A stretch of 64,000 nucleotides of DNA from Kiloniellales bacterium (GTDB lineage Bacteria > Pseudomonadota > Alphaproteobacteria > Kiloniellales > JAKSDN01). The notes beneath the pieces were generated by a model. The model worked only from the letters and a program-made list of their open reading frames with translations. It was not told the DNA's origin and did no database searches. The DNA is taken from the NCBI GenBank assembly GCA_041617155.1, contig JBFJPL010000010.1, forward strand, positions 197 to 64,196, written 5' to 3'. The translations under genes were made by a program, and so were the position numbers. Below, in pieces: positions 42,475 through 64,000 of this stretch (its first letter is position 1; every line of letters begins with the position of its first letter).

Positions 42475-42681
42475 GGCGTCCGCTACTCGAAAGCTGCGCC
42501 GGCACGGCGCCGACTTGGTCCCCGGGACTATATGAAGGCGGGTGCGCTTTGGCGAGGGGGCGGGGCGTCCGGGGCCGCCAAATACCGCTTCAATAGCCCA
42601 AACTACTAAATGGTCGGATTTATCTAATAATTTAGGTAAAACTTGGAACGTAAGTGGCAATTTTGTGGTATATTTACCGCT

Positions 42682-43554: not shown

Positions 43555-43763
43555 AGCGGGATCGGGTTCCATGGAGTCGGCGGAGGTGCCCCCTCATCCT
43601 CCCACAGCGCTGCTGCGCTGCGGGCCCCCTGCCTCTCCCCGAGGAGAGGGAAGAGTAAGGCTCGCGTCGCGGCGTTCCCTCTCCTTGGACAGAGGGCTTG
43701 GCCTGCCAAGGGCGCGAAGCGCGGGGTGAGGGGGTGATCCCAACCAAACCGATCCCGCTTTAG
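43551..43763. mobile_element. MITE-like element with 15-bp terminal inverted repeats, carrying family 2 REP hairpins
   Basis: CTAAAGCGGGATCGG at 43551..43565 is the exact reverse complement of 43749..43763. The interior contains CCTCTCCCC-ga-GGAGAGGG and a segment homologous to 28008..28072. Confidence 0.6.
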
Positions 43764-46749: not shown

Positions 46750-47568
46750 TCAGCCGCCGCCTGCGGCCACGATCTCGCGCACCAGGGCGAGGTCGGAGAC
46801 CTTGTCGACATCGACCGGCGCGGTCGGGAAGGGCATTTGCACCACCGTGGCCCGCACCTTGATGGCCGCCGAGGCACGTCGCATCGCGGCCGACAGGGTC
46901 AGGCGGCCGAGCAGGAACAGGACCAGCGAGACGACGCCGAAGCTGGCGATCATGCGCCAGGGCTTCTTGCGGTGGCTTTCCGCACGGGCCCAGAAGCGCA
47001 CCGCCTGGAGCCCGGCCGGCCTTGTTAACGCGAAGAGGTTGCAGCCGGAAAAGCGTCCGTCGCGGAACCTCAGGTAGGTGCGTTCGGCGCCGGGAAAGGC
47101 GCTCTCGATCACCGATTTCGCCGCCAGGGCGGCGACCACGTCGGCGCCGGTCGCCTGAGCCTCGGCCAAGAAGTGCTCGATCATCTGAACCGTCACGAGC
47201 GGGTTGTCCGCCGTGGTGACGAGCAGGGGGGTGGGGCTCGCCAGGGCCTCGGTCGCCGCCAGTACGCTGCGGCTCGGAGTCGCGCCGCTGGTCAGGACCC
47301 TGACCTTGCCGGCCGCGACCGTCGCGCTGACCGCCGAAAGCTCGGTCAGCAACTCGGGCGCCTCGATCGAGATCACGATGTCGCCCACCGAGGGGCTCGC
47401 CAGCAGCGTCTCCAGAACCCGCACGACCATCGGCACGCCGGCGATATCGACCAGGCACTTGTGGCTCTTGCCCTCACTCAGCGCGACCGGGTCCGAGGCC
47501 CCGCGCGAGCCGGCCAGGACCAGGGCGGTGAAGACCTGGCCACCGGGGCTGCCGTCCTCCTTGCTCAC
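46750..47568 (-). CDS. MobA-like NTP-transferase-fold protein with C-terminal TM helix
   Basis: 272 aa. The GTG start overlaps the stop of the upstream GNAT gene (GTGA). Motifs LVLAGSRGASDP and TTADNPL are present. The TM helix is MIASFGVVSLVLFLLG. Confidence 0.8.
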   Translation of the reverse strand: MSKEDGSPGGQVFTALVLAGSRGASDPVALSEGKSHKCLVDIAGVPMVVRVLETLLASPSVGDIVISIEAPELLTELSAVSATVAAGKVRVLTSGATPSRSVLAATEALASPTPLLVTTADNPLVTVQMIEHFLAEAQATGADVVAALAAKSVIESAFPGAERTYLRFRDGRFSGCNLFALTRPAGLQAVRFWARAESHRKKPWRMIASFGVVSLVLFLLGRLTLSAAMRRASAAIKVRATVVQMPFPTAPVDVDKVSDLALVREIVAAGGG

Positions 47569-48767
47569 GCCAGCGCCTTTTCGTAGATCCGGTAGGTCTT
47601 GTAGGGCCGGCCGCCAGCCGTCTCGATGATGCTCTGGGCCTGCAGGTTGTCCTCGAGCACCCAGGAAAGCTCCGCGCTCTCAAAGCCGCGCCGGCGCAGG
47701 CCTTGGTGCGCCCGGTTGATCACCGCGAAGGCCAGGGCGGCGCCCAACGTGCCGCCCTGGAATTTTCGCCGCACGCCCATCAGCGGCATGCGGGCGGTGC
47801 GGATCTTGCCGGCTTTCAGGCGGTACAGCAGTTTGGCCCAGCCGAACGGCAAAAGCGCGCCGTCCAGATCGGCGATCGCCTCGTTAAGGTTCGGCAGGCC
47901 GACCGCGAAAGCCGCTGGCTCGCCCTCGACCTCGGCGATCGCGACGCATTCGGCATCGATCAGCGGCTTCAGGTCCTTGGCGACCTTGGCGATTTCGACC
48001 TGGGAGAAGGGGACGAAGCCCCAGTTGTTGGCCCAGGCGTCGTTGAAGATTCCCATGACCGCCTTCAGGTCCTCGTCGAACCGACGCATCAACAGCGGCC
48101 GGATGGTCAGGCCTGATTGCGCCTCGAGGCGACCGATCAGCCGTCGCGCGGACTCGGGCAGCGGGTCCCTGGCCATGTCGAATTCATAGGCGATGAGGTC
48201 GCGCACCTTGGCGTAGCCCAGGGCCTCCAGCCGTTCCGCGTAGTAGGGCCGCGCGTGTCCCATCATCAGCGAGGGCGGCCGCTCGAATCCCTCCACCAGA
48301 AGGCCGGACTCGTCGTTGATCGACAGGCTGAAGGGCCCGCGCACGCGCACCAGGCCGCGCTGGCGCAGCCAAGCCTCGGCGGTGCCGAGCAGCTGGGCGA
48401 ACACTTCCGCGTCGTCGATCGCCTCGAGGAAGCCAAAATGCCCGGTCGCGTCCTGGTGCTGGTTCAGCGCCGCCTGGTCGATCTGGGCGCTGATCCGGCC
48501 GACCGGCGTGCCGCCGCTGAGCGCCAGCCAAAGCTGCACCTCGGCGTGGCGGAAAAAGGGATTGGCCTTGCGGTCAAGGTGCTGGCGCCGTTCGAAGACC
48601 AGCGGCGGGACCCATTGGGAATCATCCCAGTAGATGCGCCAGGGAACCCTGATGAAGCGGTCGAGTGCCGCTTTGCCTTCGACCGGCAGGATCTCGACGG
48701 CGCCGGGCGCCGGCGCGCGCGCCGCGACCTGTTCCCGACCCGCTCCGCGCTTAGCCTGCTCAGGCAA
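47565..48767 (-). CDS. GNAT-fold N-acyltransferase, candidate bacterial ceramide synthase (bCerS-like)
   Basis: 400 aa (TTG start, AGAGGAG upstream). Motifs VPWRIYWDDSQWVPPL, NPFFRHAEVQLWLA, GRISAQID, GHFGFLEA and RGPFSLSINDESGLLVEGF are present. As far as I recall, this family is often mis-annotated as dATP pyrophosphohydrolase, and it includes the Caulobacter ceramide synthase. Confidence 0.7.
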   Translation of the reverse strand: MPEQAKRGAGREQVAARAPAPGAVEILPVEGKAALDRFIRVPWRIYWDDSQWVPPLVFERRQHLDRKANPFFRHAEVQLWLALSGGTPVGRISAQIDQAALNQHQDATGHFGFLEAIDDAEVFAQLLGTAEAWLRQRGLVRVRGPFSLSINDESGLLVEGFERPPSLMMGHARPYYAERLEALGYAKVRDLIAYEFDMARDPLPESARRLIGRLEAQSGLTIRPLLMRRFDEDLKAVMGIFNDAWANNWGFVPFSQVEIAKVAKDLKPLIDAECVAIAEVEGEPAAFAVGLPNLNEAIADLDGALLPFGWAKLLYRLKAGKIRTARMPLMGVRRKFQGGTLGAALAFAVINRAHQGLRRRGFESAELSWVLEDNLQAQSIIETAGGRPYKTYRIYEKALA

Positions 48768-48883: not shown

Positions 48884-49375
48884 CTATTGTCGCAGGGTGA
48901 TCTCCACGGTCGTACCGTTGGGGCCGACCGTAAAACGCGCTTCCTTGTGCTTCGGCGGCCCGAGGCGCAGGCCGGGATTGTTGGAGACGCCATAGGGCTC
49001 GGCCGGCAGTCCCAAGGCGTTCTTGTCGAACTTCCTGTTGCCGTTGACGTCGTGATAGAGGCCGATCGCGAAGACCCCTGGTCCCGGCACCGGCAGGCAC
49101 ATCTCGACGCTGCCGATGCGCGCCGGAACGCGAACCCGCACCAGTTTCTTCTTCTTTTTCAGGAACTCCTCCGGCTTGTCGCCGTGCAGGTCCGCGGTGA
49201 TCGTGCCCTTGGCCTTGCGCACGTTCTTGACGATGACACGGATCGCGCCGGCCTGTTCCTCGCAGGCCGCGGCGCGTGGTGTGGCGGCGCTTTGATCGAG
49301 GCCCGAGGCCGGCGCCGCCGAAGCGGGCAGGCCGACCGCCAATGCCAGCATCAAGCCTCTGAGTACGAATGTCAT
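48884..49375 (-). CDS. DUF2141-like secreted protein
   Basis: 163 aa with a signal peptide. Motifs HDVNGNRKFDKNALGLPAEPYGVSNN are present. Confidence 0.8.
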   Translation of the reverse strand: MTFVLRGLMLALAVGLPASAAPASGLDQSAATPRAAACEEQAGAIRVIVKNVRKAKGTITADLHGDKPEEFLKKKKKLVRVRVPARIGSVEMCLPVPGPGVFAIGLYHDVNGNRKFDKNALGLPAEPYGVSNNPGLRLGPPKHKEARFTVGPNGTTVEITLRQ

Positions 49376-51841: not shown

Positions 51842-52801
51842 ATGAAAATCGGATTGGTCAGCAATTGGCGAAGCCGGCGCAACAAGCGGGGTCTGCCGGT
51901 GCTGCCGGACACCAGGGTTTCGGGCGTCGAGATTCTGCATCGTCCGTTGGACGGGATCGTCGGCCTGGGCGACGTCTTGCGCGACTTCGCGGCGGCCGAG
52001 GTCGATATCCTCGCCGTCAATGGCGGCGACGGCACCGTCTCGGCCACCTTGAGCGAGCTGCTGCACCGCAATGCGTTCGACAAGCTGCCCCTTCTGGCGC
52101 TGCTGGGTGGCGGCACCACGAACATGACCGCCGCCGACGCGGGCCTGCGCGGCCCGGCGGCCAAGGCCTTGAGGCGCCTGGTCGCGCGGACCGCGCGCAA
52201 CGAACTCGAAGCCGTCACTGTCGAGCGTGACGTCATCCGGGTCGACTACCGGCCCGACCGGGCGCCGCTCTACGGCATGTTCTTCGGGACCGCCGCGATC
52301 TGCCGGGCGATTCAGCTGTGCCACGAGGTGTTTCATCCGATCAAGGTGGAATCCTCGGCCGCCGCCGGCGCGACCCTGGCCTACGTCTTCGCGTGCAGCC
52401 TGTTCGGCCGCACCGACAAGCATCGACTTATCCAAGGCGACCGAATGACCGTGCGCTTGGACGGCCGGGCCAGCGAAGAGGGCGAAAAGCTTTTGGCCCT
52501 GGTGACCACGCTGGACCGTTTGGTGCTGCGCTCCCGGCCGTTCTGGGGCAAGGAGGAGGGGGCGCTTCGATACATGAGCATCGCCCACCCGCCCTGGCGT
52601 CTGGGCCGCTCGGCCAGGCGCGTTCTGTACGGCGGCGCGGACCGCGGTTTGCCGCCGGAGCACTACGACAGTCACAACGCCGAGCGCATATCGTTCGAGA
52701 TGACCTGCCCCTTCACGCTCGATGGCGAGATCTTCGAACCGGCGCCGGACGTCCCGGTCGAACTGAGCTGCGGCGGGCGTCTGAGCTTTCTGCACAATTG
52801 A
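51842..52801 (+). CDS. Diacylglycerol-kinase-family lipid kinase (candidate ceramide kinase)
   Basis: 319 aa with ILAVNGGDGTV (DAGK catalytic domain motif) and LLGGGTTNM. It starts 12 nt after the lptG stop. Confidence 0.8.
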   Translation: MKIGLVSNWRSRRNKRGLPVLPDTRVSGVEILHRPLDGIVGLGDVLRDFAAAEVDILAVNGGDGTVSATLSELLHRNAFDKLPLLALLGGGTTNMTAADAGLRGPAAKALRRLVARTARNELEAVTVERDVIRVDYRPDRAPLYGMFFGTAAICRAIQLCHEVFHPIKVESSAAAGATLAYVFACSLFGRTDKHRLIQGDRMTVRLDGRASEEGEKLLALVTTLDRLVLRSRPFWGKEEGALRYMSIAHPPWRLGRSARRVLYGGADRGLPPEHYDSHNAERISFEMTCPFTLDGEIFEPAPDVPVELSCGGRLSFLHN

Positions 52802-52806
52802 GAGCC

Positions 52807-53760
52807 ATGATGAAACGACAAAAGGCTGTCCGGGAGGTGATCGCGGCCGAGTTGGGCCAGCCGGTGTCCGACAGCGTCAAGGCCGCGGCGGCCGAGATCC
52901 GCCGACGTCACCGGGCGGCCGTCGCCGGCTGCCTGTTTTACGGTTCCTGTCTCAGGGAAGGCCGCGACCAGGGCCGGGTGATCGATTTCTACGTGCTCAC
53001 CCAGGACTACCGGCAGTTCCATGGCCGGCGCTTGCCGGCGATGCTGAACGCCCTTTTGCCGCCGAACGTCTATTACCTGGAGACCGAGTCCGACGGCCAA
53101 GTGGTCAGGGCCAAGTACGCAGTGATTTCGCTCGAGGATCTGGTCCAGGACACCTCGGCTTCCGCCTTTCTCTCGACCCTCTGGGGTCGTCTGTCGCAGC
53201 CCTGCGCGTTGGTCTACGAGCGCGACCAGCAGGTCCGCCGGGCGGTCGCCGCCGCGCTGGGTGCCGCGGTCGAAACCATGACGACGGAGACGCTGCCGCT
53301 GCTGCCGCGCGAATTTAGCGCCCGCGACCTCTGGACCCGGGCGTTTGCCGAAAGCTATCGCACCGAATTGCGGTCGGAACGCACGAACCGTCCAGCCGAG
53401 CTCTATCAAAGCTATGCCGCGCGCTACGACCGCGTGACGACGGCCATGCTGGCCGGATCACACATCGGGTCGGAGCCGGAGGCTTCGGACCCGCCGCGGT
53501 TCCGTCATGCGGCCGACGGCGGCAAACGCGGCGGCGCCGAACGACGATGGTGGCGCCGGCGCGTGGCCGGCAGGGCGGTCCATGTGCTGCGGCTCTGCAA
53601 GGCCGCCTATACCTTCACGGACGGCCTTGACTACATACTCTGGAAGATCGAACAGCACTCCGGCGTGCGCACCGAGCCGACGGCGTGGCAGCGGCGCCAT
53701 CCGCTCCTCGCGGCGCCGGGTCTGGCTTGGCGGCTCTATCGCCGCCGGGCCATCCGGTGA
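52807..53760 (+). CDS. Tam41/Mmp37-like nucleotidyltransferase (candidate lipid-phosphate cytidylyltransferase)
   Basis: Part of ORF 52318..53760; ATG at 52807 lies 5 nt after the kinase stop. The segments LFYGSCLREG...VIDFYVLTQDYRQFH, PPNVYYLE and KYAVISLEDLVQD....LWGRLSQP parallel the conserved blocks I recall for mitochondrial CDP-DAG synthase Tam41 (YGSGVF..D.IF.V.D...WH, GVYYN, KYGVIS...L..DL..W..LY.AGRLQKP). Confidence 0.65.
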   Translation: MMKRQKAVREVIAAELGQPVSDSVKAAAAEIRRRHRAAVAGCLFYGSCLREGRDQGRVIDFYVLTQDYRQFHGRRLPAMLNALLPPNVYYLETESDGQVVRAKYAVISLEDLVQDTSASAFLSTLWGRLSQPCALVYERDQQVRRAVAAALGAAVETMTTETLPLLPREFSARDLWTRAFAESYRTELRSERTNRPAELYQSYAARYDRVTTAMLAGSHIGSEPEASDPPRFRHAADGGKRGGAERRWWRRRVAGRAVHVLRLCKAAYTFTDGLDYILWKIEQHSGVRTEPTAWQRRHPLLAAPGLAWRLYRRRAIR

Positions 53761-53785: not shown

Positions 53786-55024
53786 CTAGACCCGCTCTTC
53801 GGCCACCCGGCGCAAAGGGAAGGCCTCGGCCGCCTCATAGGCGCGCATATCTTCCGCGACCATCGCAAAGGCTTCGGCGATCCGCTCGATCTGCGCCGGC
53901 GTGTGTGCCGCGGACGCACTGCAGCGCAGCAGCGAGGTGCTGTTTGGCGTACCCGGCGGGATCGCCAGGTTCACGTAGACGCCCGCCGCGATCAGCTTGT
54001 TCCAATACATCACGGCCTGGTCTTGGCTCGGGATCTTGACCGCGATGATCGGGCTGGCCGGCGCCGCCAGGGTCAGACCGAGATCGCTCAGCCGATCGTA
54101 AAGCGCGTGCGCATTGCGCCACAGCGTTTGCCTTAGTGACGGGTCGCTCGAGATCCGCCGCAGCGCCGTGGTTACCGAGGCGACGTTGGCCGGCGAGAGC
54201 GACGCCGTGAACATGTAGGGCCGACTGGCGAAGCGCAGATAGGGGAATTTCGGATGGTCCGAGGCGCAGAAGCCGCCGATCGAGCCCAGGCTCTTGCTGA
54301 AGGTACCGACGATGAAATCGACATCCTCCAACACGCCGGCATGCTCCGCCACGCCGCGGCCATGCTCGCCGAACACGCCGACCGAGTGCGCCTCGTCGAC
54401 GTAGAGGTAGGCGCCGTACTTGCGCTTGATCTCGGCGAACTCCGCCAGCGGCGCGATATCGCCGAACATGCTGTAGAGGCCTTCGACGATGATCAGCTTG
54501 TTGCCGCCGCCGCCGTCCAGGCGCTGTAGGCGCTTTTCCAGGTCGCTCGGCGAATTGTGCCGGAAGCGGATCACCGTGGCGCCGGTCATGCGGCAGCCGT
54601 CGTAGATGCAGGCGTGGCAATCGGCGTCCAACAGGATGTAGTCGTCCGGACCGGCGATCGCCGAGATCACGCCGAGGTTCGCCTGATAGCCGGTCGGGAA
54701 CACCATGGCCGAACCGAAATCGAAGAAAGACGCGATCTCTTTCTCGAGCGTGCGGTGTTCGGTATAGGTGCCGTTGGCGATGCGCGAACCGGTCGTGCCG
54801 GTGCCCAAACGCTCCAGCGCATCTTGTGCCGCGTCGACGCACTCGCGATCGAAGGTCAGGCCGAGATAGTTGTTGGTTCCCGCCAGCACGACTTTCCGCC
54901 CGCCGATGATGGCTTCCGTCGCGTGCCGCATTTCGTCCATGCACACGCCGAAAGGATCCTGTCCTGCGGCGACGATCTGTTCGTGCAGCGCGGGCAAGCC
55001 GGCCATTTTGTCAAAGAGATCCAT
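53786..55024 (-). CDS. spt: Serine palmitoyltransferase (alpha-oxoamine synthase family)
   Basis: Part of ORF 53786..55075 with ATG at 55024. It is collinear with the Sphingomonas SPT sequence as I recall it: DPFGVCMDE, GTNNYLGLTFD, GTTGSRIANGT, VDEAHSVG, the PLP-lysine motif GTFSKSLG and LLRCSASAAHTPAQI. Confidence 0.9.
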   Translation of the reverse strand: MDLFDKMAGLPALHEQIVAAGQDPFGVCMDEMRHATEAIIGGRKVVLAGTNNYLGLTFDRECVDAAQDALERLGTGTTGSRIANGTYTEHRTLEKEIASFFDFGSAMVFPTGYQANLGVISAIAGPDDYILLDADCHACIYDGCRMTGATVIRFRHNSPSDLEKRLQRLDGGGGNKLIIVEGLYSMFGDIAPLAEFAEIKRKYGAYLYVDEAHSVGVFGEHGRGVAEHAGVLEDVDFIVGTFSKSLGSIGGFCASDHPKFPYLRFASRPYMFTASLSPANVASVTTALRRISSDPSLRQTLWRNAHALYDRLSDLGLTLAAPASPIIAVKIPSQDQAVMYWNKLIAAGVYVNLAIPPGTPNSTSLLRCSASAAHTPAQIERIAEAFAMVAEDMRAYEAAEAFPLRRVAEERV

Positions 55025-55028
55025 GTTC

Positions 55029-55280
55029 CTACTGGGCCCCCGCTTGTTTGTGGATGGCTCGGACAAGATCCCCAACTGTCCGAATTTCCGATAACAGGTT
55101 CATCGGAAAGGAGATGCCATACTCGTCCTCTACTTCCATGATCAGATCGAGCACAGCCACTGAATCAATCTCCAAGTCTCCCGTGATATCGGTTTCGCCT
55201 GTCAGCTCTAGGTTTCTGACATTGAATTGCTGCAGCTTCTGGCAGACTTTGCGTAAAACCAGATCGTCCGCGACGTCCAT
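55029..55280 (-). CDS. Dedicated acyl carrier protein
   Basis: Part of ORF 55029..55370 (GTG); ATG at 55280 gives 83 aa. The phosphopantetheine site context is GDLEIDSVAVLDLIMEVE. It ends 4 nt before the spt start. The local G+C is noticeably lower. Confidence 0.85.
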   Translation of the reverse strand: MDVADDLVLRKVCQKLQQFNVRNLELTGETDITGDLEIDSVAVLDLIMEVEDEYGISFPMNLLSEIRTVGDLVRAIHKQAGAQ

Positions 55281-55390
55281 GGCGCTAGTTAGTACCCTAA
55301 TGGTTACGCTTTGGTTTAGCTGTGTGCGAATTATCCGGCCGCCGCTGAAACGACCCAAGACGTAAAGCACGCCGCCTTAGAACACTCAAA

Positions 55391-55444
55391 TCACTGTTTG
55401 TTACACAGTGTTACTGATCACTCTTTGTTACAGCCTGTTACGGC
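55391..55444. promoter_or_regulatory. Tandem 27-bp repeat carrying four TGTTAC hexamers upstream of acp-spt
   Basis: The two units are TCACTGTTTGTTACACAGTGTTACTGA and TCACTCTTTGTTACAGCCTGTTACGGC. TGTTAC occurs at 55399, 55409, 55426 and 55436, that is two pairs each spaced 10 bp apart. Confidence 0.45.
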
Positions 55445-55582
55445 TCTTCGGACGGCCTGTTCTCTTGGCTCGGCCCTCGAATCCTTGGTCGCTTCGCGGT
55501 CCGTGAAACGACCACTTGTCGCAACGTCGCGGCGCTGGCCGCCACGCGTCCGGATCGTCGGCCGGCCACATCCGGATGGTGC

Positions 55583-56524
55583 TCAAAGCCAACCGTTTCT
55601 CAGATACCAACCGAGCGTCAGACGCATGCCTTCATCCAGCTCCACCCTCGGCTGCCAGCCGGTCAAATCGGCGACGACGTTGTCCCGGCAAACCCAATCA
55701 TCGTGGTACAACTCGTTGACCTTCTCGGGCGCCATCGTCGGCGCACGTCCGGCAATTCGCGCCAGCCCGGAGTCGATGCCGGCAACCAGGCGCATCATGA
55801 TTCTCGGCACGGAAACGCAGGTCACTCTTCTGCCCAGGAAGCGCTCACCGGCCTCGGCAATTTCAGCCCAGCTGTAGCCGGCGCCCCGGGCATCCCTGAT
55901 CTCCAACCTCGATCCGCTCTCGACCTCGGCGGATAGCAGCGCAACGATCGCCTCGCAAAGGTCGGTCACATAGATGAGCGAGACCCGCGCCTTTGCAACC
56001 CTGGGCACCGGCAGAAAACCACGTTTCATGAAGCGGAACAGCCGCAGGGTTTCTCGGTCGCCAGGGCCATAGACAGCCGGCGGCCTCAGGGCGACCCAAT
56101 TCAATGCCGCGCCGTGCGCGGCCAATGCCTGCTCCGCCCGGTTCTTGCTCGCCGCGTAGCCGGACAGCGCCGGTTCGCGCGCGGCCAGTGAGGAGAGAAA
56201 GACGATGCGCGGCGGCGCCTCCTGGCGGCCGCAGACTTCGGCCAGCAGGGAGGTGCCGGCGGCATTCACCCGATCCAGGTCATCGCTCCGCGCCGCCTTG
56301 ATCAGGCCGGCGCAGTGCACCACCGCGTGACAGCCTTCGACCAATTCTTGCAAACTCGCCTGGTCCTCGAGCGTGCCGCCGACGACGGCGGCAGGCGCCG
56401 GCAAGCCGGCGCCATCCGGCCGGCGCGACAGAGCGCGCACGTCGAATCCCGCAGCCAGCAGGGACTCGACCAGGTGGCGACCGATAAAGCCGGTTGCCCC
56501 GGTAACCGCCACACGGCTGTTCAT
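55583..56524 (-). CDS. NAD(P)-dependent epimerase/dehydratase-family reductase (CerR-like)
   Basis: 313 aa with VTGATGFIGRHLV and the active-site context SGYAASKNRAE (YxxxK). It sits between the acyl ligase and acp, the same position I recall for the Caulobacter ceramide cluster. Confidence 0.8.
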   Translation of the reverse strand: MNSRVAVTGATGFIGRHLVESLLAAGFDVRALSRRPDGAGLPAPAAVVGGTLEDQASLQELVEGCHAVVHCAGLIKAARSDDLDRVNAAGTSLLAEVCGRQEAPPRIVFLSSLAAREPALSGYAASKNRAEQALAAHGAALNWVALRPPAVYGPGDRETLRLFRFMKRGFLPVPRVAKARVSLIYVTDLCEAIVALLSAEVESGSRLEIRDARGAGYSWAEIAEAGERFLGRRVTCVSVPRIMMRLVAGIDSGLARIAGRAPTMAPEKVNELYHDDWVCRDNVVADLTGWQPRVELDEGMRLTLGWYLRNGWL

Positions 56525-56625
56525 GTCATATCAGGTCTTGGTCGCTTCGGTGCGCCAGGTGCCGTCGGAATGCCTCGGAATTCATCGCGCGACTATCCAT
56601 AACCCGGCGTCGTCCGGCTGTCCGA

Positions 56626-58356
56626 TCAATTCTGAGGGGCGGCAAAAAATCCGGAAAGGTAGCGAACCTTGGTGAAGCTGCGGCTGATCTTGCCTGACGA
56701 GGTGAGCGGCAGGCTGCGAACCGGCGCCAGCACGACCTTGGTGTCGACGCCGACGGACTTGCGCACGATCGTCGCGATCTCGTTTGCCAGGGTCGCGCGC
56801 TCCTCCTCCTCCCGGCTTCTGCATTGGACGACGGTGACGACTTCCTCGCCGTTCTCCGGCGATTCCACCGAGAAAGCCGCGACGTCGCCGTTCTTTATGC
56901 CGGCCAGGCGTTCAACCGCCCACTCGATGTCCTGAGGCCAGATGTTTCGGCCGTTGCAGATGATCAGATCCTTGGCGCGCCCGGTGATGACCAGTGAACC
57001 GTCGATCATATAGCCCAGGTCGCCGGTGTCGAGCCAGCCGTCTTCCGAAAGCACGGCGGCGGTCTTCTCCGGGTCCTGGAAGAAGCCGCTCATCAGGCTC
57101 GGCCCTTTGACCATAACCCGCCCGACCTGACGATCGGGTAGCAGCGTGCCGTCCTCGTCCCTGATCTCGATTTCGTGCCCGCCCATCGCCGTGCCGCAGA
57201 GCACCAGGGAGCGCGCGTCCTCGACCGGCGTGTCGGCCGTCGCCGGCACCGCTTTGCCGCTCCGGGCCAGCTCGCGCTTGTCGATCCGGTCGGTCTCGAA
57301 CTCCTCGGCCAGGGGCGCGAAGCTGACCGCCAGGGTGGATTCGGCCAGGCCGTAGCTCGGCACGAAGGCCGAGCGCTTGAATCCGAACTCCTTGAAGGTC
57401 TCCGCGAATCGGTTGAGCACGCCCGCGCGGACCATGTCGCCGCCGATGCCGGCGACCCGCCATGCCGAGAGGTCGAGCGAAACTTCCGAACCGTTGCTGC
57501 CCCGGCGCTGGCACAGGTCGTAGCCGAAGGAGGGGCTGAAAGCCAAGGTGCCGCCGTTCTCGGAGAGCAGCCGCAGCCACAGCAGGGGACGCCGGGCGAA
57601 GTCCGAGGTGGCGAGGTAGTCGATCGAAAGCTGTGACAGCATGGGACAGATGCTGAATCCGACCAAACCCATGTCGTGGTACAGCGGTAACCAGCTGGTG
57701 CAGCGGTCGCCCTCGCGGGCGTCCAGGCCGTGAATCATGATCGCCCGGCAGTTGCTGGTGATCGAGCGCTGCGAGATGACGATGCCCTTGGGGTCGCTCG
57801 TGCTGCCGGAGGAGTATTGAATGTAGGACGGATCGTCCGGGCCCGCCGGCCGCGGGTCGGGGCCTTCGGGCAGGGCGCAGAACTCCTCCGGGGTGCCGGC
57901 CATCGCGACTTCGAACCCCTCGAGCGCCTCGCGCAACATGCCGATCATGTGGGTCGATGCCACGGCCGCCGCCGGCAGGGCCGAGCCGATCATGCGCCGG
58001 ATCTGCTGAAGGTAGGCCTCCTTGGCGCCGAGGTTCATCGGCACGGGCAGCTGCATCGGAAGCAAGCTGGCGTACTGGCAGGCATAGAAGAAGCGGTGGA
58101 AATCGGGCGTCGTCTCGGCCACCAGAGCGACGCGGCTGCCCGGCTCCAGCCCGAGCTTGATGAGCTTTCGAGCCAGAGAAATCGCGTCTTCGCGCATTTC
58201 GGCGTAGCTCAGACTGGCCTGAAGCTCACCCCTGATCGAGTAGAAGTTGCAGCCGGCCTCGCCCTTGGCGGCATAGTCGAGCCCCTCGGCGAGTGTTTCG
58301 AATTTTCCGCGCATGAACGGCAGGGAGCTGGAGGATGTCGGCGTGGGGCGTTGCAT
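56626..58356 (-). CDS. Fatty acyl-AMP ligase / acyl-ACP synthetase
   Basis: 576 aa with the AMP-binding motif YIQYSSGSTSDPKG, plus TGDLGY and the C-terminal SSGKISR. Confidence 0.9.
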   Translation of the reverse strand: MQRPTPTSSSSLPFMRGKFETLAEGLDYAAKGEAGCNFYSIRGELQASLSYAEMREDAISLARKLIKLGLEPGSRVALVAETTPDFHRFFYACQYASLLPMQLPVPMNLGAKEAYLQQIRRMIGSALPAAAVASTHMIGMLREALEGFEVAMAGTPEEFCALPEGPDPRPAGPDDPSYIQYSSGSTSDPKGIVISQRSITSNCRAIMIHGLDAREGDRCTSWLPLYHDMGLVGFSICPMLSQLSIDYLATSDFARRPLLWLRLLSENGGTLAFSPSFGYDLCQRRGSNGSEVSLDLSAWRVAGIGGDMVRAGVLNRFAETFKEFGFKRSAFVPSYGLAESTLAVSFAPLAEEFETDRIDKRELARSGKAVPATADTPVEDARSLVLCGTAMGGHEIEIRDEDGTLLPDRQVGRVMVKGPSLMSGFFQDPEKTAAVLSEDGWLDTGDLGYMIDGSLVITGRAKDLIICNGRNIWPQDIEWAVERLAGIKNGDVAAFSVESPENGEEVVTVVQCRSREEEERATLANEIATIVRKSVGVDTKVVLAPVRSLPLTSSGKISRSFTKVRYLSGFFAAPQN

Positions 58357-58659: not shown

Positions 58660-60378
58660 TCAAAGCGAAGTGGCTTGAGGTTCGGCTTCCGGCGTGACGG
58701 CGAAACGATCGGCGCCCAGTTCGTAGACCCGGTCGGCCGCGTCGAGCCACGCCGGCCGGTGGGTGATCGCCAGGATCGTGACAGAGTCCGCCAGACTGCG
58801 GATATTGCGGCAGATCGCCGCTTCGGTTTCCGGGTCGAGCGCGGAGGTCACCTCGTCCAGGATGAGCAGCGCGGGATTATGGACCAGGGCGCGGGCCAGG
58901 GCGATCCGCTGGCGCTGGCCGCCCGAGAGCCTGGCGCCGCGTTCGCCGACCAGCGTCATCATGCCCTCCGGCAGGGCGGAGACGAACTCCCAGGCATCCG
59001 CGGCTTCGAGCGCGGCCTGCGCCTGCTCGGCGCTGAACGAGTTGTCGCCGAGCGTCACGTTGGCCAAGACCGTATCGTGGAAGAGTATGAGCTCCTGGGG
59101 CACATAGCCGATCATTGCGCGCCAGGCATGGAGATCGACCTGTTCCAGCGGCACGCCGTCAATCAGAATTTCGCCCTCGTCCGGCCGGTAAAGCCCCAGC
59201 AGGAGATCGGTCAAGGTGGTCTTGCCGACACCGGACGCGCCCATGATCACGGTCACCTTGTTGGCCGGCACCTCCATCGAGATGTTCTCCAGGACCTGGT
59301 TGTCGCCGAACGCGAAGGAGATGTCGTGCATAGTGCAGCCTTCGTTCAAGGTCGGATGCTGTGTGCCGTGCACCACCTCGCGTTCCAGCTTGGATTGGTC
59401 GACCAGCTTGTGGATCGCCCAGTAGGCGCTTTCGACGATCGACGCTTCCTGCAGCAGTTTCTGAATGCGGTTGACCCGCGACACCGTGCGTTGCAGCACG
59501 AGCCCCATGACAAACAACTCGGTGAGCGGCTGCTGCAGAAACCGGACCGCCAGATAAAAGCCGACCACCAGGCACAACGTCAAGATCGGTTCCTGCAGGT
59601 TGCGCATCAGCTGGGTGCTGAGGGTTTGCCGCCGCAAAGCCTGTCTCAGGTCGTCGATCTTGTTTTCGAACAGCTGGGCGAAATGGCCTTGCCGGCCCAT
59701 GGCCTTGAGCGGCTTGATGCCAACGAGCGCGTCGCTCAAGTGCACCACAAGCTCCTGCGTGCGCTTGGTCTGCCGCCGGCCCGCCTTCCTGGCGGTTCGC
59801 ACCATGGAGCTGAGCAGGAGGGCGATCAGTCCGCCGATCAGCAGCGCGACCAGCGCCAGTTGCCACGACAGCAACAAGGCCACGGCGATATAGACCGCGC
59901 ATTGCACGATGCTCGCGATGAACTGAACGGCCAGGACAAAGGCTTGGGCTGAACGCGATGCTTCGAAACTGACCGCATTGGCCAGTCGGCCGACCGGTTG
60001 GCCGATGAAAAAACTCCACTTCGCGCGCATCAGGTTGTCGATCAGCTTGGTGCGCAACTCGGTCGCGACCTCCGCCGCGGCGTAGCCGACATGGCGCATG
60101 GCCAGGAGGCTGAGGCCGGATTTCAGGACTATACCGCCCAGCACCACGAGAATCAGGATTTCGAGGTTGGCCGGCAGGCCGAGGCGATCCAGAGATTCGA
60201 AAATGACCTTGCTGGCCGTCGATGTTCCGCCGTCGGACCCTGCGCCGGCGACGGACAGCAGCGGCAGCAGGCTGGTCAGGCCGATCCCCTCGGCCAGGCC
60301 GGCCAGCAGCAGCAGGCCGAGAACGGTCCAACGGATCCGCGCCTTGGTGGCGAAAAAGATGCCTAGTACACCGCGCAT
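58660..60378 (-). CDS. ABC exporter, fused permease-ATPase (MsbA-like)
   Basis: Part of ORF 58660..60456 with ATG at 60378. It has a six-TM N-terminal half. Walker A is GASGVGKTT, the signature is LSGGQRQRIALARAL, and LILDEVTSALD is present. Confidence 0.9.
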   Translation of the reverse strand: MRGVLGIFFATKARIRWTVLGLLLLAGLAEGIGLTSLLPLLSVAGAGSDGGTSTASKVIFESLDRLGLPANLEILILVVLGGIVLKSGLSLLAMRHVGYAAAEVATELRTKLIDNLMRAKWSFFIGQPVGRLANAVSFEASRSAQAFVLAVQFIASIVQCAVYIAVALLLSWQLALVALLIGGLIALLLSSMVRTARKAGRRQTKRTQELVVHLSDALVGIKPLKAMGRQGHFAQLFENKIDDLRQALRRQTLSTQLMRNLQEPILTLCLVVGFYLAVRFLQQPLTELFVMGLVLQRTVSRVNRIQKLLQEASIVESAYWAIHKLVDQSKLEREVVHGTQHPTLNEGCTMHDISFAFGDNQVLENISMEVPANKVTVIMGASGVGKTTLTDLLLGLYRPDEGEILIDGVPLEQVDLHAWRAMIGYVPQELILFHDTVLANVTLGDNSFSAEQAQAALEAADAWEFVSALPEGMMTLVGERGARLSGGQRQRIALARALVHNPALLILDEVTSALDPETEAAICRNIRSLADSVTILAITHRPAWLDAADRVYELGADRFAVTPEAEPQATSL

Positions 60379-60570
60379 CGCGTTTGCAGTTCCGTGATTT
60401 GCCCGTTCAGCTGCCCGGACGGGGCGCCCCGCTTCTTGCTCGCCGCAGGCTAACAAATCGCTGGTTTAGGGCTTCCTAACAGACTTCCCAATGTGACTCC
60501 AGTCGACTTTGGCCGGCATCGGCGCGGCGTGCGAGGCCGTAGGCGCCGTCCGATCGCCGGACCGCGGCTC

Positions 60571-61104
60571 TCAGCGGACCGGCCAGAGACCGCGCAAGTG
60601 CGCGATCAATGCCTTTCTTTGGCCCTGGTCCAGCTCGGTGTGGGCCCCCAGGTTGGGCAACGCCGGCCAGCCGGGATCATCGAAGGAAACGCCGCCGAAC
60701 GCGCGGGGCTCGGCATATCTGGGCAGCACATGGAAATGGACGTGAGGGTCGACCATCATGAGCATGAGGTAGTTGATCTTGTCGTAGGCGAAGGCCTTGC
60801 CCAGGGTGGTTTCGATATCGGCGGTCACGGTACCGAGGTTGTCGAACGCCGGCTGGCCGATGGCCGCAAAGGCCGTTGCCGGTTGCTTGCAGGCCAGGAC
60901 CAGGGCGCCCAGCGTGGCTTGCTGCGGGCGCAAGAGGATTACCCAGTGGTCGTAGTCCGCCAGCAGCGTCTCGGGATAGCCGAACTTGGCGATGGTCTGG
61001 TTCGCGGCCGGTGACGTGGCGGTTGGCTCGGACAACGGATCTCTCCAAACGAATGTCGGAACGTCGGCCGCCGGTCTATGCGCCGCTGTGCGGACGACGG
61101 CCAA
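60571..61104 (-). CDS. HIT-family nucleotide hydrolase/transferase
   Basis: 177 aa (TTG start, N-terminus uncertain). The histidine triad is HVHFHVLPR. Confidence 0.75.
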   Translation of the reverse strand: MAVVRTAAHRPAADVPTFVWRDPLSEPTATSPAANQTIAKFGYPETLLADYDHWVILLRPQQATLGALVLACKQPATAFAAIGQPAFDNLGTVTADIETTLGKAFAYDKINYLMLMMVDPHVHFHVLPRYAEPRAFGGVSFDDPGWPALPNLGAHTELDQGQRKALIAHLRGLWPVR

Positions 61105-61307
61105 ATCTAGCCGTCACGGCCGCCAATCGCAAAGCCCATGCCGTGGCGGCATTTGCATTCGCCGCCAAATCGATTATGTACCCACGGCAGTAAATCGAAG
61201 TGACCGGCGGCCTGGAGCGCCAGCGCGGCGCCCGCCTGCCGCGACAGCTTTGGAGTTCGGCGTTGGTGCAGACAAGCGATTCGGCGCGGGGTAGAGCGCC
61301 CGGCCTT

Positions 61308-62453
61308 ATGGTGATCGGCCAGTGTGATACCAAGATCTGGGGATTGGCGCCGGGCGAACGCCATATCCGCGCCTTCGCACGGGCCGGCGTATCCTCGCTC
61401 GTCAAGACCAGCGAGCCGGCTCCGGCCGAGGGTTCCGTGGTCATGATCCGGGCCGAATACGTGATCGCTGAGGAACTGGTCCGCGCCCTGGTGGAAACGC
61501 CCGGCGTGATCCTGGCGGTCGAGGGGCGGCGCGCCGGCGAGAAGCTCGCCGTCGCGGCCCACGCGGAGGCGGCCGATGCCGAGGCGGTCGCCGCGTTCCT
61601 GACGCGCGGCGCCTTCGGCCCGGACGATTCGGCACCCAGGGGCTTGCGCGTTCTGGGACCTGGCGAAATCGGCTCCCAGTACAATCAGATGCTGCGCAAG
61701 CGGATGGTTCCCTTCGTGCTGTCGCTGGCCGACCAGCCGCTCGCCGAGATCGAGAAAACGACCTTCAGCGCGGTCTACAAGGGCTCGACCGACTTCGTCA
61801 CCAAGTGGTGCTGGCCGTTGCCCGCGCGCTGGGCCACGCGCTGGGCGGCCGCCTGGCACATCACCCCCAACACGATCACGACGGTCAGCCTGGTGTTCGT
61901 CGTCCTGGCGACCTATCTCTTCGCCCAAGGTGATTTTCTGGCCGGCGTCGCGGCGGCCTGGTTCATGACCTTCCTGGACACGGTCGACGGCAAGCTGGCC
62001 CGGGTGACACTGACCTCCTCCAAGTGGGGCAATCTCTACGACCACGGCATCGATCTGATCCACCCGCCGTTCTGGTGGGGCGCGTGGTGGTTCGGCCTCA
62101 AGGGCGTGAGCGATCCGGCCCTGCAGTCCTCGCTCGACCTGGCGCTCTGGATCATCCTGGTCGGCTATGTCGCCGGCCGCCTGTTGGAGGGCGTTTTCCT
62201 CTGGAGCTTCAAGATCCAGACCCATATCTGGCGCCCGGTCGACCACTACTTCCGTACGATCACCGCCCGGCGCAATCCCAATCTGGCGATCATGATGGTC
62301 GGTGCGCTGTTCGGCCGCCCCGATCTCGGCTTCCTGGCGGTCGCCGGCTGGACCGTGTTCTGCCTGCTGTTCCATGCCGTGCGCGTCCTGCAGGCGCTGG
62401 CCGTCCACACGCGCGGCGGGCGGATCAGCTCCTGGCTGAAGGAGCCGGGCTAG
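61308..62453 (+). CDS. CDP-alcohol phosphotransferase with about 190-aa N-terminal cytoplasmic domain
   Basis: Part of ORF 61200..62453 (GTG) with ATG at 61308. The full family signature D-x2-DG-x2-AR...G-x3-D-x3-D is present as DTVDGKLARVTLTSSKWGNLYDHGIDLIH. The C-terminal half is multi-TM. Confidence 0.85.
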   Translation: MVIGQCDTKIWGLAPGERHIRAFARAGVSSLVKTSEPAPAEGSVVMIRAEYVIAEELVRALVETPGVILAVEGRRAGEKLAVAAHAEAADAEAVAAFLTRGAFGPDDSAPRGLRVLGPGEIGSQYNQMLRKRMVPFVLSLADQPLAEIEKTTFSAVYKGSTDFVTKWCWPLPARWATRWAAAWHITPNTITTVSLVFVVLATYLFAQGDFLAGVAAAWFMTFLDTVDGKLARVTLTSSKWGNLYDHGIDLIHPPFWWGAWWFGLKGVSDPALQSSLDLALWIILVGYVAGRLLEGVFLWSFKIQTHIWRPVDHYFRTITARRNPNLAIMMVGALFGRPDLGFLAVAGWTVFCLLFHAVRVLQALAVHTRGGRISSWLKEPG

Positions 62454-62723
62454 GAGCCTGTCCGAGTATTGGTCATGGACTGCATCGGTCGGACAGACGC
62501 GAGGGTTAGGAGCGGAGGCGCGGGCGATGCCGTGTGCATCGGCAAGCCTTCGCGACGCGGCACTCGCGTCTGTCCGGCCGACCCGGAGGGCCGCGTTTTC
62601 AAGGCCCTGGGCCGTCGTCCGGCACCGCTTGCGATGCGCACGGCATCGCGGCGCGGCACCGTCCTAGCCCAAGGCCTTGAAAACGCGGTGCAGCCCGTGA
62701 CCAATACTCGGATAGGCTCCTAG
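62450..62723. mobile_element. 274-bp MITE-like element with 29-bp terminal inverted repeats
   Basis: The left end is CTAGGAGCCTGTCCGAGTATTGGTCATGG. The reverse complement of the right end is CTAGGAGCCTATCCGAGTATTGGTCACGG, giving 27/29 identity. Internal nested inverted repeats are present. It has TA (or CTAG) flanks. Confidence 0.65.
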
Positions 62724-62730
62724 GGAAAAG

Positions 62731-63441
62731 ATGTCGGGCGACCAGCCACCAGACGAATCCGCAGGCGGGCCGGCGCGGCCCGTGGCGGTGGTCTTCGACC
62801 TCGACCGGACGGTCACCAAGTGGGGCACCTTCACGCCGTTCCTGCTGTTCGCGGCACGCGGCCGGCCCTTGAAATTTCTTCTGATCGGGCCGCTTCTGGT
62901 CGCCGCCCTGGGCTACAAGCTGGGCCTGATCAGCCGCGGGCGACTCAAGGAAATCATGCTCACATCCGTGCTCGGCGGGGCGACGCGCGACGAGGTGGCG
63001 GCGCTTTCCGCGGCCTTCGTCGAACGGCGCGTAAACTGCGGCTTGCGGCCGGGCGCGCTGCGGGCCATCGCCGAACATAAGGCCAAGGGCTGTTATTTGA
63101 TCCTTGCAACGGCGAGTTTCGAATTCTATGTAGAGCGCTTGGGGCATCAGCTGGGCTTCGATAGGGTTGTCGCCACCCGGTCTCTTTGGGACGAGGGAGG
63201 GCGTCTCGTCGGACGGATCGATGGCGAGAACTGCTACGGGGCGGAAAAGCTGAGGCGCTTGGAAGAAGCTCTGCCCGATTTGAGCGCACGTTATCGGGTG
63301 GTCGCCTATTCCGACAGCCACGCTGATGAGCCGCTGCTCCGTTGGGCGGATATCGGCATTGCCGTGAATCCGACACGAAAACTACGCAGACGTGCAAAAG
63401 CGGGGAATTTCGAGCTTGTGGACTGGAACAGCACAGCGTGA
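62731..63441 (+). CDS. HAD-IB family phosphatase (SerB-like)
   Basis: 236 aa with motif I VVFDLDRTV, ILATAS, and motif IV YSDSHADEPLL. Confidence 0.85.
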   Translation: MSGDQPPDESAGGPARPVAVVFDLDRTVTKWGTFTPFLLFAARGRPLKFLLIGPLLVAALGYKLGLISRGRLKEIMLTSVLGGATRDEVAALSAAFVERRVNCGLRPGALRAIAEHKAKGCYLILATASFEFYVERLGHQLGFDRVVATRSLWDEGGRLVGRIDGENCYGAEKLRRLEEALPDLSARYRVVAYSDSHADEPLLRWADIGIAVNPTRKLRRRAKAGNFELVDWNSTA

Positions 63442-63552
63442 TCGCCAACGGCTGCGCCGCCGCCGTTCCGGTCACAAAGTTTACACAACTTAATCAACCC
63501 TTAACCCGCCACACCCCATCTATTCGACCCCTAGCGATATTGGATAGGCAGA

Positions 63553-64000
63553 ATGAAAGCAGTGATCTTGAGTGCGGGCCAGGGCTCTCGCCTGCTGCCC
63601 TTGACCGAAGACCGTCCGAAATGCCTGCTTCCGATCAACTCGTCCCGCCTGATCGAGCTTCAGGTCCAGAACTTGGTCGCTTGCGGCATCGACGAAGTCG
63701 CCGTGGTCGTCGGTTTTCGGGCCGCCGCGGTCGAGACGTTCCTCGACGTCTTCCGGCGCGCCGGGCTGGCCATCCGTACCCTGTTCAATCCCTTTTTCAA
63801 TGTCGCCGACAACCTGGCGAGCTGCTGGATGGCGCGCGATGAAATGGACCGGGATTTCATTCTGCTGAACGGCGATACGCTGTTCGAGCCGGCGGTGCTC
63901 GACGAGCTGCTGAACGCGCCGCCGGCGCCGGTGACCTTGGCGATCGACCGCAAGGCGGCCTATGATTCCGACGACATGAAGGTGCGGCTCGACGGCTCCC
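63553..64000 (+). CDS. Nucleotidyltransferase (cytidylyltransferase-like, LicC/IPCT-type), 3' end beyond window
   Basis: Hand translation from ATG at 63553 gives MKAVILSAGQGSRLLPLTEDRPKCLLPI...ILLNGDTLF. This is the G-x-G-x-R-L...K NTP-transferase signature. The frame stays open to the window edge. Confidence 0.85.
   Translation, partial: MKAVILSAGQGSRLLPLTEDRPKCLLPINSSRLIELQVQNLVACGIDEVAVVVGFRAAAVETFLDVFRRAGLAIRTLFNPFFNVADNLASCWMARDEMDRDFILLNGDTLFEPAVLDELLNAPPAPVTLAIDRKAAYDSDDMKVRLDGS

Follow-up and report, generated by a model that had tools for sequence, protein, structure and literature searches.

The last part of the window, by which we mean the whole 64,000-nucleotide stretch analyzed here (contig JBFJPL010000010.1, Kiloniellales bacterium), holds at positions 58660-64000 a block of five genes that is probably the second half of an anionic-sphingolipid gene cluster, of the kind that makes the outer-membrane sphingolipids ceramide phosphoglycerate (CPG) and ceramide diphosphoglycerate (CPG2) in Caulobacter crescentus. 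The five-gene set is a further member of an already described pathway, with a phosphatase and an exporter of other types than those of Caulobacter. The head group, which the sequence-only reading of this DNA had left as the open 'X' of a ceramide-phospho-X lipid, is most likely phosphoglycerate, as in the published CPG/CPG2 system (PMC9393093, PMC11324152, PMC12275187). The features of the block are as follows.

58660-60378, minus strand: ABC half-transporter (ATG at 60378, 572 aa; Pfam ABC_membrane 6.5e-27 and ABC_tran 1.7e-32; open reading frame (ORF) 58660-60456)
60571-61035, minus strand: HIT protein, counterpart of CC_1157 (TTG at 61035, 154 aa; Pfam HIT 3.6e-4; ORF 60571-61104)
61308-62453, plus strand: CpgA-type CDP-alcohol phosphotransferase (ATG at 61308, 381 aa; Pfam CDP-OH_P_transf, PF01066, 2.5e-9; ORF 61200-62453)
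62450-62723, no strand: insertion of about 274 bp resembling a miniature inverted-repeat transposable element (MITE), with 38-nt terminal inverted repeats
62731-63441, plus strand: HAD-IB family phosphatase (236 aa; Pfam HAD 3e-32)
63553-64000, plus strand, cut by the window end: CpgD-type NTP-transferase (149 of about 253 aa; Pfam NTP_transferase 5.8e-13, 63553-63999)

Pfam matches and gene calls bore out the presence, position and strand of all five genes proposed from the sequence alone; the starts of the ABC, HIT and transferase genes follow those called on public contigs whose proteins are identical or 90% identical. The HAD-IB and NTP-transferase genes follow the transferase on the plus strand, as both Pfam and their motifs confirm. 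The HIT and ABC genes are, as had been read, divergent from the transferase and beside the ceramide operon: they run on the minus strand in the same direction as the genes for acyl-ACP synthetase (ACS), CerR, acyl carrier protein (ACP) and Spt, and this core operon (53786-58356) lies directly downstream of them.

In C. crescentus, genes beside spt turn ceramide into CPG and CPG2 (PMC9393093), and the cluster (CC_1152-CC_1168, or CCNA_01210-01226) comprises cpgA-D, CC_1153, CC_1157, CC_1158, lptF2/G2, spt, acpR, cerR, aasR and bcerS. First, CpgB (CC_1160) has been shown biochemically to be a ceramide kinase, and the Tam41-like CpgC (CC_1161) is needed for CPG (PMC11324152, PMC9393093). Second, CPG2 needs CpgD (CC_1152/CCNA_01210; PF00483/PF12804), a CTP:phosphoglycerate cytidylyltransferase that yields CDP-glycerate (PMC12275187), the MobA/CofC-like CC_1153 (PMC11324152), and CpgA (CC_1159/CCNA_01217), a PF01066 protein with an N-terminal cytoplasmic domain (PMC11324152 S1 Text), deletion of which keeps CPG and loses CPG2 (PMC9393093). 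Third, the calcineurin-like phosphoesterase CC_1158, encoded next to CC_1159, lowers CPG2 and raises CPG when deleted, although CPG2 can be made without it and six further genomes of predicted CPG2 producers lack it; CC_1157 is a HIT protein, CC_1155/1156 are LptF/G paralogues, and CC_1166 is a Wzx-like putative flippase (PMC11324152). According to the published model, CpgD makes the CDP-glycerate that CpgA uses to convert CPG into CPG2 (PMC12275187).

The window matches this cluster family by family: each of the six CPG2 gene types of Caulobacter is present, itself or through an analogue, and the pairings cpgA-HIT, cpgA-phosphoesterase, CC_1153-bCerS, cpgB-cpgC and lptF2-lptG2 are common to both. 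It differs in that its cpgA stands apart from cpgB/cpgC and forms a cpgA-HAD-cpgD unit, in having a HAD-IB protein in place of the calcineurin-like CC_1158, and in having an ABCB-type half-transporter in place of the Wzx-like CC_1166; homologues of LptC2 and CC_1167 did not turn up near the block, although no search was aimed at either.

By homology, we infer that the enzymes of the source organism have the same substrates as those of Caulobacter. Ceramide formed by Spt, ACP, CerR, ACS and the ceramide synthase bCerS would then be phosphorylated to ceramide-1-phosphate by the CpgB-type kinase and turned into CPG by the CpgC-type Tam41-like protein. The CpgD-type NTP-transferase would make CDP-glycerate from CTP and 2- or 3-phosphoglycerate, and the CpgA-type transferase would hand the phosphoglycerate of CDP-glycerate to CPG, with CPG2 and CMP as products; the same chemistry is predicted for Caulobacter. 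The HAD-IB protein may do the accessory job done elsewhere by a calcineurin-like CC_1158-type phosphoesterase, the HIT protein may act on a nucleotide-linked intermediate, and the ABCB-type half-transporter may flip the finished lipid over the inner membrane, from which LptF2/LptG2 (LptB2F2G2) would extract it. The earlier suggestion that the NTP-transferase makes a CDP-polar alcohol for transfer onto ceramide thus holds as regards a CDP-alcohol made by a cytidylyltransferase and passed to a ceramide lipid, but the acceptor of the published model is CPG and not ceramide.

Evidence for this assignment comes first from conserved neighbourhoods. A search of one genome per species, baited with the transferase, gave 41 loci, and the window proteins were run by tblastn over the 10-kb neighbourhood. 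Ceramide or ceramide-phosphate genes occur within 10 kb of the transferase in 38 of the 41, the three exceptions being short or partial contigs, which upholds both the ceramide link and the proposed linkage of the five genes to spt in related genomes. These loci come from Alpha-, Beta- and Gammaproteobacteria (including Hydrocarboniphaga effusa and Nitrosomonas), delta-type metagenome-assembled genomes, Candidatus Binatia, Thermodesulfobacteriales, Deferribacterales and Planctomycetota, so that the module is far wider spread than Caulobacterales and Sphingomonadales. In the 38 loci, the transferase gene adjoins either the DAGK and Tam41 genes, in the order cpgA-cpgB-cpgC, or the NTP-transferase gene, the cpgA-DAGK-Tam41 order being found in most related loci. 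Two Nitrosomonas loci (L035 and L036) have the order bCerS, CC_1153-like, LptG/F, cpgA-like, DAGK, Tam41, which is Neut_1100-1106; these genes are listed as orthologues of CC_1154-CC_1161, with Neut_1104 as the orthologue of CC_1159 (41% identity, 5e-75; PMC11324152). Between the window transferase and the L035 protein the match is full-length, with 33% identity and an E-value of 7e-64.

The second line of evidence is the transferase itself, which is 100% identical to one called NCBI protein with the generic public annotation 'phosphatidylglycerophosphate synthase'. Its CDP-alcohol phosphotransferase signature is complete, as had been noticed, in the form D224-x2-D-G-x2-A-R-x8-G-x3-D-x3-D249 (encoded at 61977-62054), and none of the eight signature residues (D224, D227, G228, A231, R232, G241, D245 and D249) varies among 64 homologues. 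The protein begins with an alpha/beta cytoplasmic domain (residues 1 to about 140, 61308-61727), followed by linker helices and six transmembrane helices that carry the motif. An AlphaFold2 model of the full-length protein (64 homologues; pLDDT 95.4) was compared with the PDB by Foldseek, with Af2299 of Archaeoglobus fulgidus (4o6m) as the best match at an E-value of 4e-9 and TM scores of 0.64/0.73, followed by Af2299-PIPS chimeras and then by IPCT-DIPPS (4mnd; 1e-7). Because the alignment spans about 390 columns (391), both domains of the transferase are aligned to Af2299.

Af2299 and di-myo-inositol phosphate phosphate (DIPP) synthase, unlike most members of the family, carry an N-terminal cytidylyltransferase-like domain, and the pocket in which Af2299 holds CDP-glycerol is small and polar (PMC4634129). 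The window protein resembles them in joining such a domain to a six-helix membrane domain (TM 0.64-0.73), in the predicted use of a soluble CDP-alcohol donor (CDP-glycerol for Af2299, CDP-inositol for DIPPS), and in a pathway logic of cytidylyltransferase, transferase and phosphatase. Since Af2299 has the same two domains and a donor one oxidation step from CDP-glycerate, it lends support to a CpgA-type assignment, and the shared architecture makes its crystal structure usable as a template for CpgA. IPCT-DIPPS differs in that the N-terminal domain of the window protein has no GxGxR loop, the active cytidylyltransferase being a separate gene in the window, and in that the predicted acceptor is a lipid, CPG, instead of inositol phosphate.

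When the N-terminal 160 residues were modelled alone (pLDDT 94), the best fit was again the N-domain of Af2299 (TM 0.52-0.54, probability 0.84-0.91); the other matches (IPCT, RmlA and further nucleotidyltransferases) were weak, at E-values of 0.1-3, and none in the PDB reached 1e-3. Alignment of the domain with the CpgD-type family by hhalign was weak (probability 17%), topologically sensible, and devoid of the GxGxR loop. A reduced cytidylyltransferase-like fold is thus supported as a fold resemblance, rather than as statistically firm homology. The degenerate nucleotidyltransferase domain suspected before stands as regards the fold, given the Af2299 alignment and the missing GxGxR, but not as a firm homology. 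Because the loop is absent, the domain cannot be an active IPCT-type enzyme.

Curated NCBIfam models place the transferase apart from known housekeeping enzymes. It scores 41.7 bits against PIPS (cut-off 170), 43.6 against archaetidylinositol-phosphate synthase (180) and 26.6 against IPCT-DIPPS (580), and no PgsA model matched at an E-value of 0.01 or better; sequence similarity to Af2299 and IPCT-DIPPS is marginal (15-16 bits). With all curated cut-offs missed by a wide margin, the transferase is by sequence no member of PgsA, PIPS or DIPPS, and the clustering with ordinary PgsA or Pcs that had been named as a refuting outcome is not borne out. As a housekeeping PgsA or PIPS it was rejected, on these scores and because the gene is always in sphingolipid loci. 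The systems of PgsA with PgpA-C, and of phosphatidylinositol phosphate (PIP) synthase with its phosphatase, share the catalytic motif and a phosphatase gene in the module, PgpC being a member of the HAD-IB branch. There, a CDP-lipid is the donor and a soluble phospho-alcohol the acceptor, which is the reverse of the published CpgA model, and the window protein, although matched best by the models for PIPS and archaetidylinositol-phosphate synthase, misses their cut-offs by far.

Some loci hold more than one CpgA-type gene. Two stand in tandem in L003 (8534-9655 and 10001-11140; 56-57% identity to the window protein), and a second, divergent paralogue (33-40% identity) occurs at L016:4498-5484, L017:5167-5850 and L029:3983-4969. 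Transfer in such loci may take more than one step, or may build a polymer of head-group units.

The third line of evidence is the NTP-transferase. Its GxGxR..K motif is present as first read, and G9, G11, R13 and K23 are invariant in the family; a full-length orthologue in L043 is 93% identical and 253 aa long, which leaves about 315 nt missing from the window copy. Ligand residues in the CpgD crystal structure are G12, R16, N90, T93, N110, G111, M147, K161, S170 and W201 (PMC13228409). Compared by reported positions rather than by alignment, and with everything beyond residue 149, where the window copy stops, taken from the family, they find counterparts in G9, R13, N87, S90, N106, G107, M142, K156, S167 and W198, at offsets of 3-5 and nearly matching spacings. 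Eight of these (G9, R13, N87, N106, G107, M142, K156 and W198) are invariant in 17 family members, and the glycerate-contacting N90, N110, M147 and K161 of CpgD all have invariant same-spaced counterparts. The enzyme is therefore predicted, from these residues, to be a CTP:phosphoglycerate cytidylyltransferase that makes CDP-glycerate. Searching a copy of the PDB without the CpgD structures 10WG-10WK with the full-length orthologue from L002 gave LicC (phosphocholine) and IMPCT as best matches. The gene at 46750 was also considered as CpgD and rejected, as it encodes a CC_1153-type MobA/CofC-like enzyme, the CpgD-type gene being the one at 63553.

Several points weigh against reading the block as a CPG2 cluster. 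First, because the Caulobacter proteins were not in our comparisons, orthology to them rests on domain architecture, synteny, the Nitrosomonas chain and residue spacings, rather than on direct alignment or a tree. Second, CpgA activity has never been shown in vitro, and the published CpgA step is a hypothesis from genetics (PMC12275187); the six-helix architecture of the Af2299/DIPPS/PIPS type is said to be typical for soluble acceptors (PMC4634129), and the model needs a lipid acceptor, CPG. Third, the scheme has no necessary role for the phosphatase or the HIT protein, yet both are conserved beside cpgA, and the HAD-IB and ABC genes have no counterpart in the Caulobacter cluster, so that this clade could differ in detail. 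Finally, the NTP-transferase gene is incomplete at the window end, and the MITE-like insertion after cpgA makes expression of the HAD and cpgD-type genes uncertain.

The phosphatase merits closer attention. It scores 118.8 bits against the HAD-IB model TIGR01490 (cut-off 98.3), with motif I as D23-L-D25-R-T, and 36 bits against the PgpC model TIGR01545 (cut-off 259); PgpC and SerB were both rejected as identities, their scores falling below the cut-offs. The occurrence of phosphoesterase, HIT and ABC genes was scored over 45 loci, with L045 and L050 added afterwards. Contrary to the notion of a general component of the module, the HAD gene is found in only eight of the 45 (the window and seven others), plus L045 and L050. 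In the eight it begins 9-281 bp downstream of cpgA, and it is always directly downstream of that gene except in L050, which has no cpgA within 6 kb. A calcineurin-like phosphoesterase (Pfam Metallophos) occupies 25 other loci, adjoining cpgA or within 3 kb of it; 18 of them have it at 34-270 bp from cpgA, 16 of these in divergent orientation. Both families together were found in none of the 45 loci, and no Metallophos homologue was found anywhere in the 64-kb window. About four of 45 loci would hold both if the two were independent, although the loci are phylogenetically clustered, which makes this suggestive only. It would seem, then, that the HAD-IB protein takes the place of the calcineurin-like CC_1158-type phosphoesterase, perhaps in function too.

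Homologues of the HAD protein with at least 56% identity come from cpgA-HAD-cpgD or HAD-cpgD sphingolipid loci. Those with 47-50% identity (L046-L049, for instance L046:6001-6717) stand in a conserved housekeeping context of rplY, pth, ychF, HAD, prs ... lgt, and automatic JGI annotation calls them phosphatidylglycerophosphatase C. The cluster HAD was probably recruited from a housekeeping paralogue of this second group.

The MITE-like element, which sits exactly in the gap from the cpgA-type stop codon to the start of the HAD gene, carries three internal inverted repeats besides the terminal ones. It has a single copy in the window and is absent from L043, where the gap is 5 bp. The insertion interrupts the operon and is not part of the pathway, with possible polar effects on the HAD and cpgD-type genes.

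These observations bear on the alternative that survives best, in which the CpgA-type enzyme follows the logic of phosphatidylglycerophosphate (PGP), PIP or DIPP synthesis and yields a phosphorylated product from which the adjacent phosphoesterase removes the terminal phosphate. We regard it as unlikely. CDP-ceramide, from the Tam41-like protein, would be condensed with phosphoglycerate, or CDP-glycerate with soluble phosphoglycerate, in the manner of DIPP synthase, which uses inositol phosphate. A phosphoesterase is attached to cpgA in most clusters, drawn from two unrelated families that never occur together; the CpgC-type protein comes from the Tam41 family that makes CDP-diacylglycerol; the nearest structures, Af2299 and IPCT-DIPPS, use soluble substrates, and their six-helix architecture is linked to soluble acceptors. 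Further in its favour, the HAD paralogues are automatically annotated as PgpC-like, the HAD protein has a hydrophobic stretch, and loss of CC_1158 shifts Caulobacter from CPG2 towards CPG. However, the Caulobacter cpgA deletion still makes CPG, so that CpgA is not needed for coupling ceramide phosphate to the first glycerate. The earlier proposal of the same kind, that CDP-ceramide from 51842-53760 is condensed with a phosphorylated alcohol and the product dephosphorylated by the HAD enzyme, meets the same difficulty and found no direct support. Moreover, CC_1158 is dispensable for CPG2 and missing from six predicted producers, the complete-looking loci L004 and L041 have neither phosphoesterase, and a phosphorylated intermediate is not reported in the literature.

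The CPG2 assignment also has to be weighed against a different head group built by the same architecture, with the NTP-transferase of this clade activating, for example, glycerol phosphate, inositol phosphate or a phosphonate. What follows the cpgD-type gene is relevant here. The closest relative with a long contig, L043 (90% identity), keeps the same order from LptG2 to the NTP-transferase and continues with CDP-sugar or O-antigen type genes; the genes after the NTP-transferase are CTP_transf_3, GDSL and GDP-mannose dehydratase genes in L002, CTP_transf_3 and methyltransferase genes in L008, and a rhodanese gene in L045. Because the genes beyond it are unrelated and variable in three groups of relatives, the sphingolipid module ends with the NTP-transferase gene, and no further head-group genes lie beyond the window. 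The locus had been expected to continue past the window end, perhaps with an inositol-phosphate synthase or a choline/ethanolamine kinase. What is missing is only the remainder of the NTP-transferase gene, after which relatives have variable sugar-nucleotide and O-antigen genes, and neither a synthase nor such a kinase was found downstream of their cpgD-type genes. Ten larger ORFs of the window, from about 26 to 43.6 kb, were checked as well and showed no inositol-phosphate synthase. An inositol head group made by the IPCT/DIPPS route was rejected on this basis, together with the scores far below cut-off and the absent catalytic loop.

Near the end of the module, a CTP_transf_3 (KdsB/NeuA-like) gene stands after or close to the cpgD-type gene at L001:3970-4692, L002:14296-15153, L008:12925-13647 and L039:11635-12357. 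It is not present in L043 and is probably a surface-polysaccharide gene. Six deltaproteobacterial loci (L019, L020, L022, L023, L024 and L027) have a TagD-like cytidylyltransferase (PF01467) and no CpgD-type NTP_transferase, with the TagD-like gene about 3.4-3.5 kb upstream of cpgA (for example L023:6151-6594). This suggests another CDP-alcohol donor in these loci, such as CDP-glycerol, and hence another head group made through the same CpgA-type enzyme.

Such variation of the donor supply by lineage speaks for a different head group in the window as well, as do the unusual HAD and ABC genes of this clade and the identity of the closest solved relatives of the NTP-transferase, LicC and IMPCT; substrate specificity is also not readable from homology alone. 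We nevertheless consider it very improbable, given the invariant counterparts of the glycerate-contacting CpgD residues, the presence in the window of every Caulobacter CPG2 gene type or its analogue, and the absence of inositol-phosphate synthase, kinase or phosphonate genes from the window region inspected and from the downstream sequence of relatives. That the five genes are unrelated housekeeping phospholipid, lipopolysaccharide or O-antigen neighbours of the ceramide operon is extremely improbable, for although O-antigen type genes start directly after the NTP-transferase in relatives and the public annotation of the transferase is generic, the genes co-localize with ceramide genes across eight lineages, the transferase and exporter fall far short of the PIPS (41.7 against 170) and MsbA (257 against 602) models, with PgsA unmatched as above, and the five genes are conserved where those past the NTP-transferase are not.

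The HIT protein scores 21.5 bits, exactly the Pfam gathering score; its H-V-H-F-H triad (then V-L) is encoded at 60730-60744, with the second and third histidines (H123 and H125) invariant in 16 orthologues, and its match in the PDB is the HIT protein 2oik (E-value 2e-5). Orthologues with 45-66% identity occur in about 20 loci. The Caulobacter protein CC_1157 was judged probably unrelated by the authors who described it (PMC11324152). In the tables of the same work, S. wittichii, H. neptunium and N. eutropha have the CC_1157 orthologue beside that of CpgA and/or CpgD, and Z. mobilis lacks it along with CpgA. Its distribution with cpgA and cpgD argues that the HIT protein belongs to the CPG2 branch and travels with cpgA, probably as a nucleotide-linked hydrolase or transferase.

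The exporter is an ABCB-type (type IV) half-transporter, its nucleotide-binding domain placed after the transmembrane domain. It had been called MsbA-like, a label that does not hold at the equivalog level, the scores being 257 bits against TIGR02203 (cut-off 602) and 226 against NF008381 (867). A housekeeping MsbA was rejected on these grounds; the best NCBIfam match is the HepA family (305 bits, cut-off 725), and the nearest solved relatives are ABCB4 and ABCB1. Like the MsbA and ABCB4 floppases it has the type IV exporter fold, and it adjoins lipid synthesis genes and those of LptF/LptG paralogues; it differs in not being an MsbA equivalog, and the Caulobacter cluster has no ABC gene of this kind. 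Homologues occur in 15 sphingolipid loci. The LptF2/LptG2 paralogues are required for sphingolipid transport in Caulobacter, and the flippase was left unidentified in the same preprint (bioRxiv doi 10.64898/2026.04.12.717747). The ABC protein is a candidate inner-membrane flippase or exporter of the anionic sphingolipid.

At L045:3557-3993 the ABC gene is down to two fragments (49 and 75 aa), with NeuB and Elm1-like genes between them and the acyl-ACP synthetase gene; the exporter is dispensable or lost in one or more lineages that keep HIT-cpgA-HAD-cpgD. At L050:1-1969 an LptD-family gene stands beside the locus, in the order LptD, Asp/Arg hydroxylase, CC_1153-like, LptG2, LptF2, HAD, CpgD-type, Spt. 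The preprint on LptF2/G2 found no LptD/E duplication in sphingolipid loci (doi 10.64898/2026.04.12.717747), and the L050 gene could be the housekeeping lptD, there by chance.

It is possible to combine these leads in a single, rather doubtful proposal: CpgA would work by PGP/DIPP-type logic with an intermediate trimmed by a phosphoesterase, for which HAD-IB and calcineurin-like enzymes are non-orthologous replacements, the HIT protein would be obligatory, and the ABC protein would be the missing flippase. If this were true, the CPG2 branch would have steps beyond the current Caulobacter model. The window holds no new kind of system; its value lies in comparative leads on CPG2 enzymology after the kinase step, namely the cpgA-attached phosphoesterase of two unrelated families, the co-travelling HIT protein and the ABC exporter. 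CPG2-type anionic sphingolipids can partly replace lipid A, and in Caulobacter they determine virulence, sensitivity to polymyxin and resistance to detergent.

The remaining genes of the cluster are upstream of the block in the window.

46750-47568, minus strand: MobA/CofC-like nucleotidyltransferase, CC_1153-type (weak NCBIfam matches to IspD, KdsB, MobA and CofC; conserved in 28 loci)
47565-48767, minus strand: bacterial ceramide synthase bCerS (conserved in 23 loci)
about 49.6-51.8 kb: LptF/LptG paralogues, LptF2/LptG2 (Pfam/NCBIfam)
51842-52801, plus strand: CpgB-type ceramide kinase, DAGK_cat (Pfam)
52801-53760, plus strand: CpgC-type Tam41-like protein (Pfam)
53786-55075, minus strand: Spt (Pfam)
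55029-55370, minus strand: ACP (Pfam)
55583-56524, minus strand: CerR (Pfam)
56626-58356, minus strand: acyl-ACP synthetase (Pfam)

The ACP ORF overlaps the longest Spt ORF, so that one or both starts are over-extended. By analogy with the published system, the CpgB-/CpgC-type pair at 51842-53760 would be the first half of the head-group pathway, from ceramide through ceramide-1-phosphate to CPG (PMC9393093, PMC10331486, PMC11324152). Rfam gave no matches across the whole window, and a scan for promoters and terminators found nothing exceeding background.

Genes for a DUF3482 GTPase and a DUF2868 protein (43760-46653) stand beside the CC_1153-type gene, and a DUF2141 gene (48884-49375) lies between bCerS and LptF2; the related loci have no counterpart of any of the three, which are therefore probably outside the pathway. 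Six loci carry a PF00487 fatty-acid desaturase/hydroxylase gene (L006:11099-12163, L007:18449-19708, and in L016, L017, L026 and L029), probably for a ceramide hydroxylase or desaturase, and the window has instead, near the cluster, a PhyH-type dioxygenase (42643-43554).

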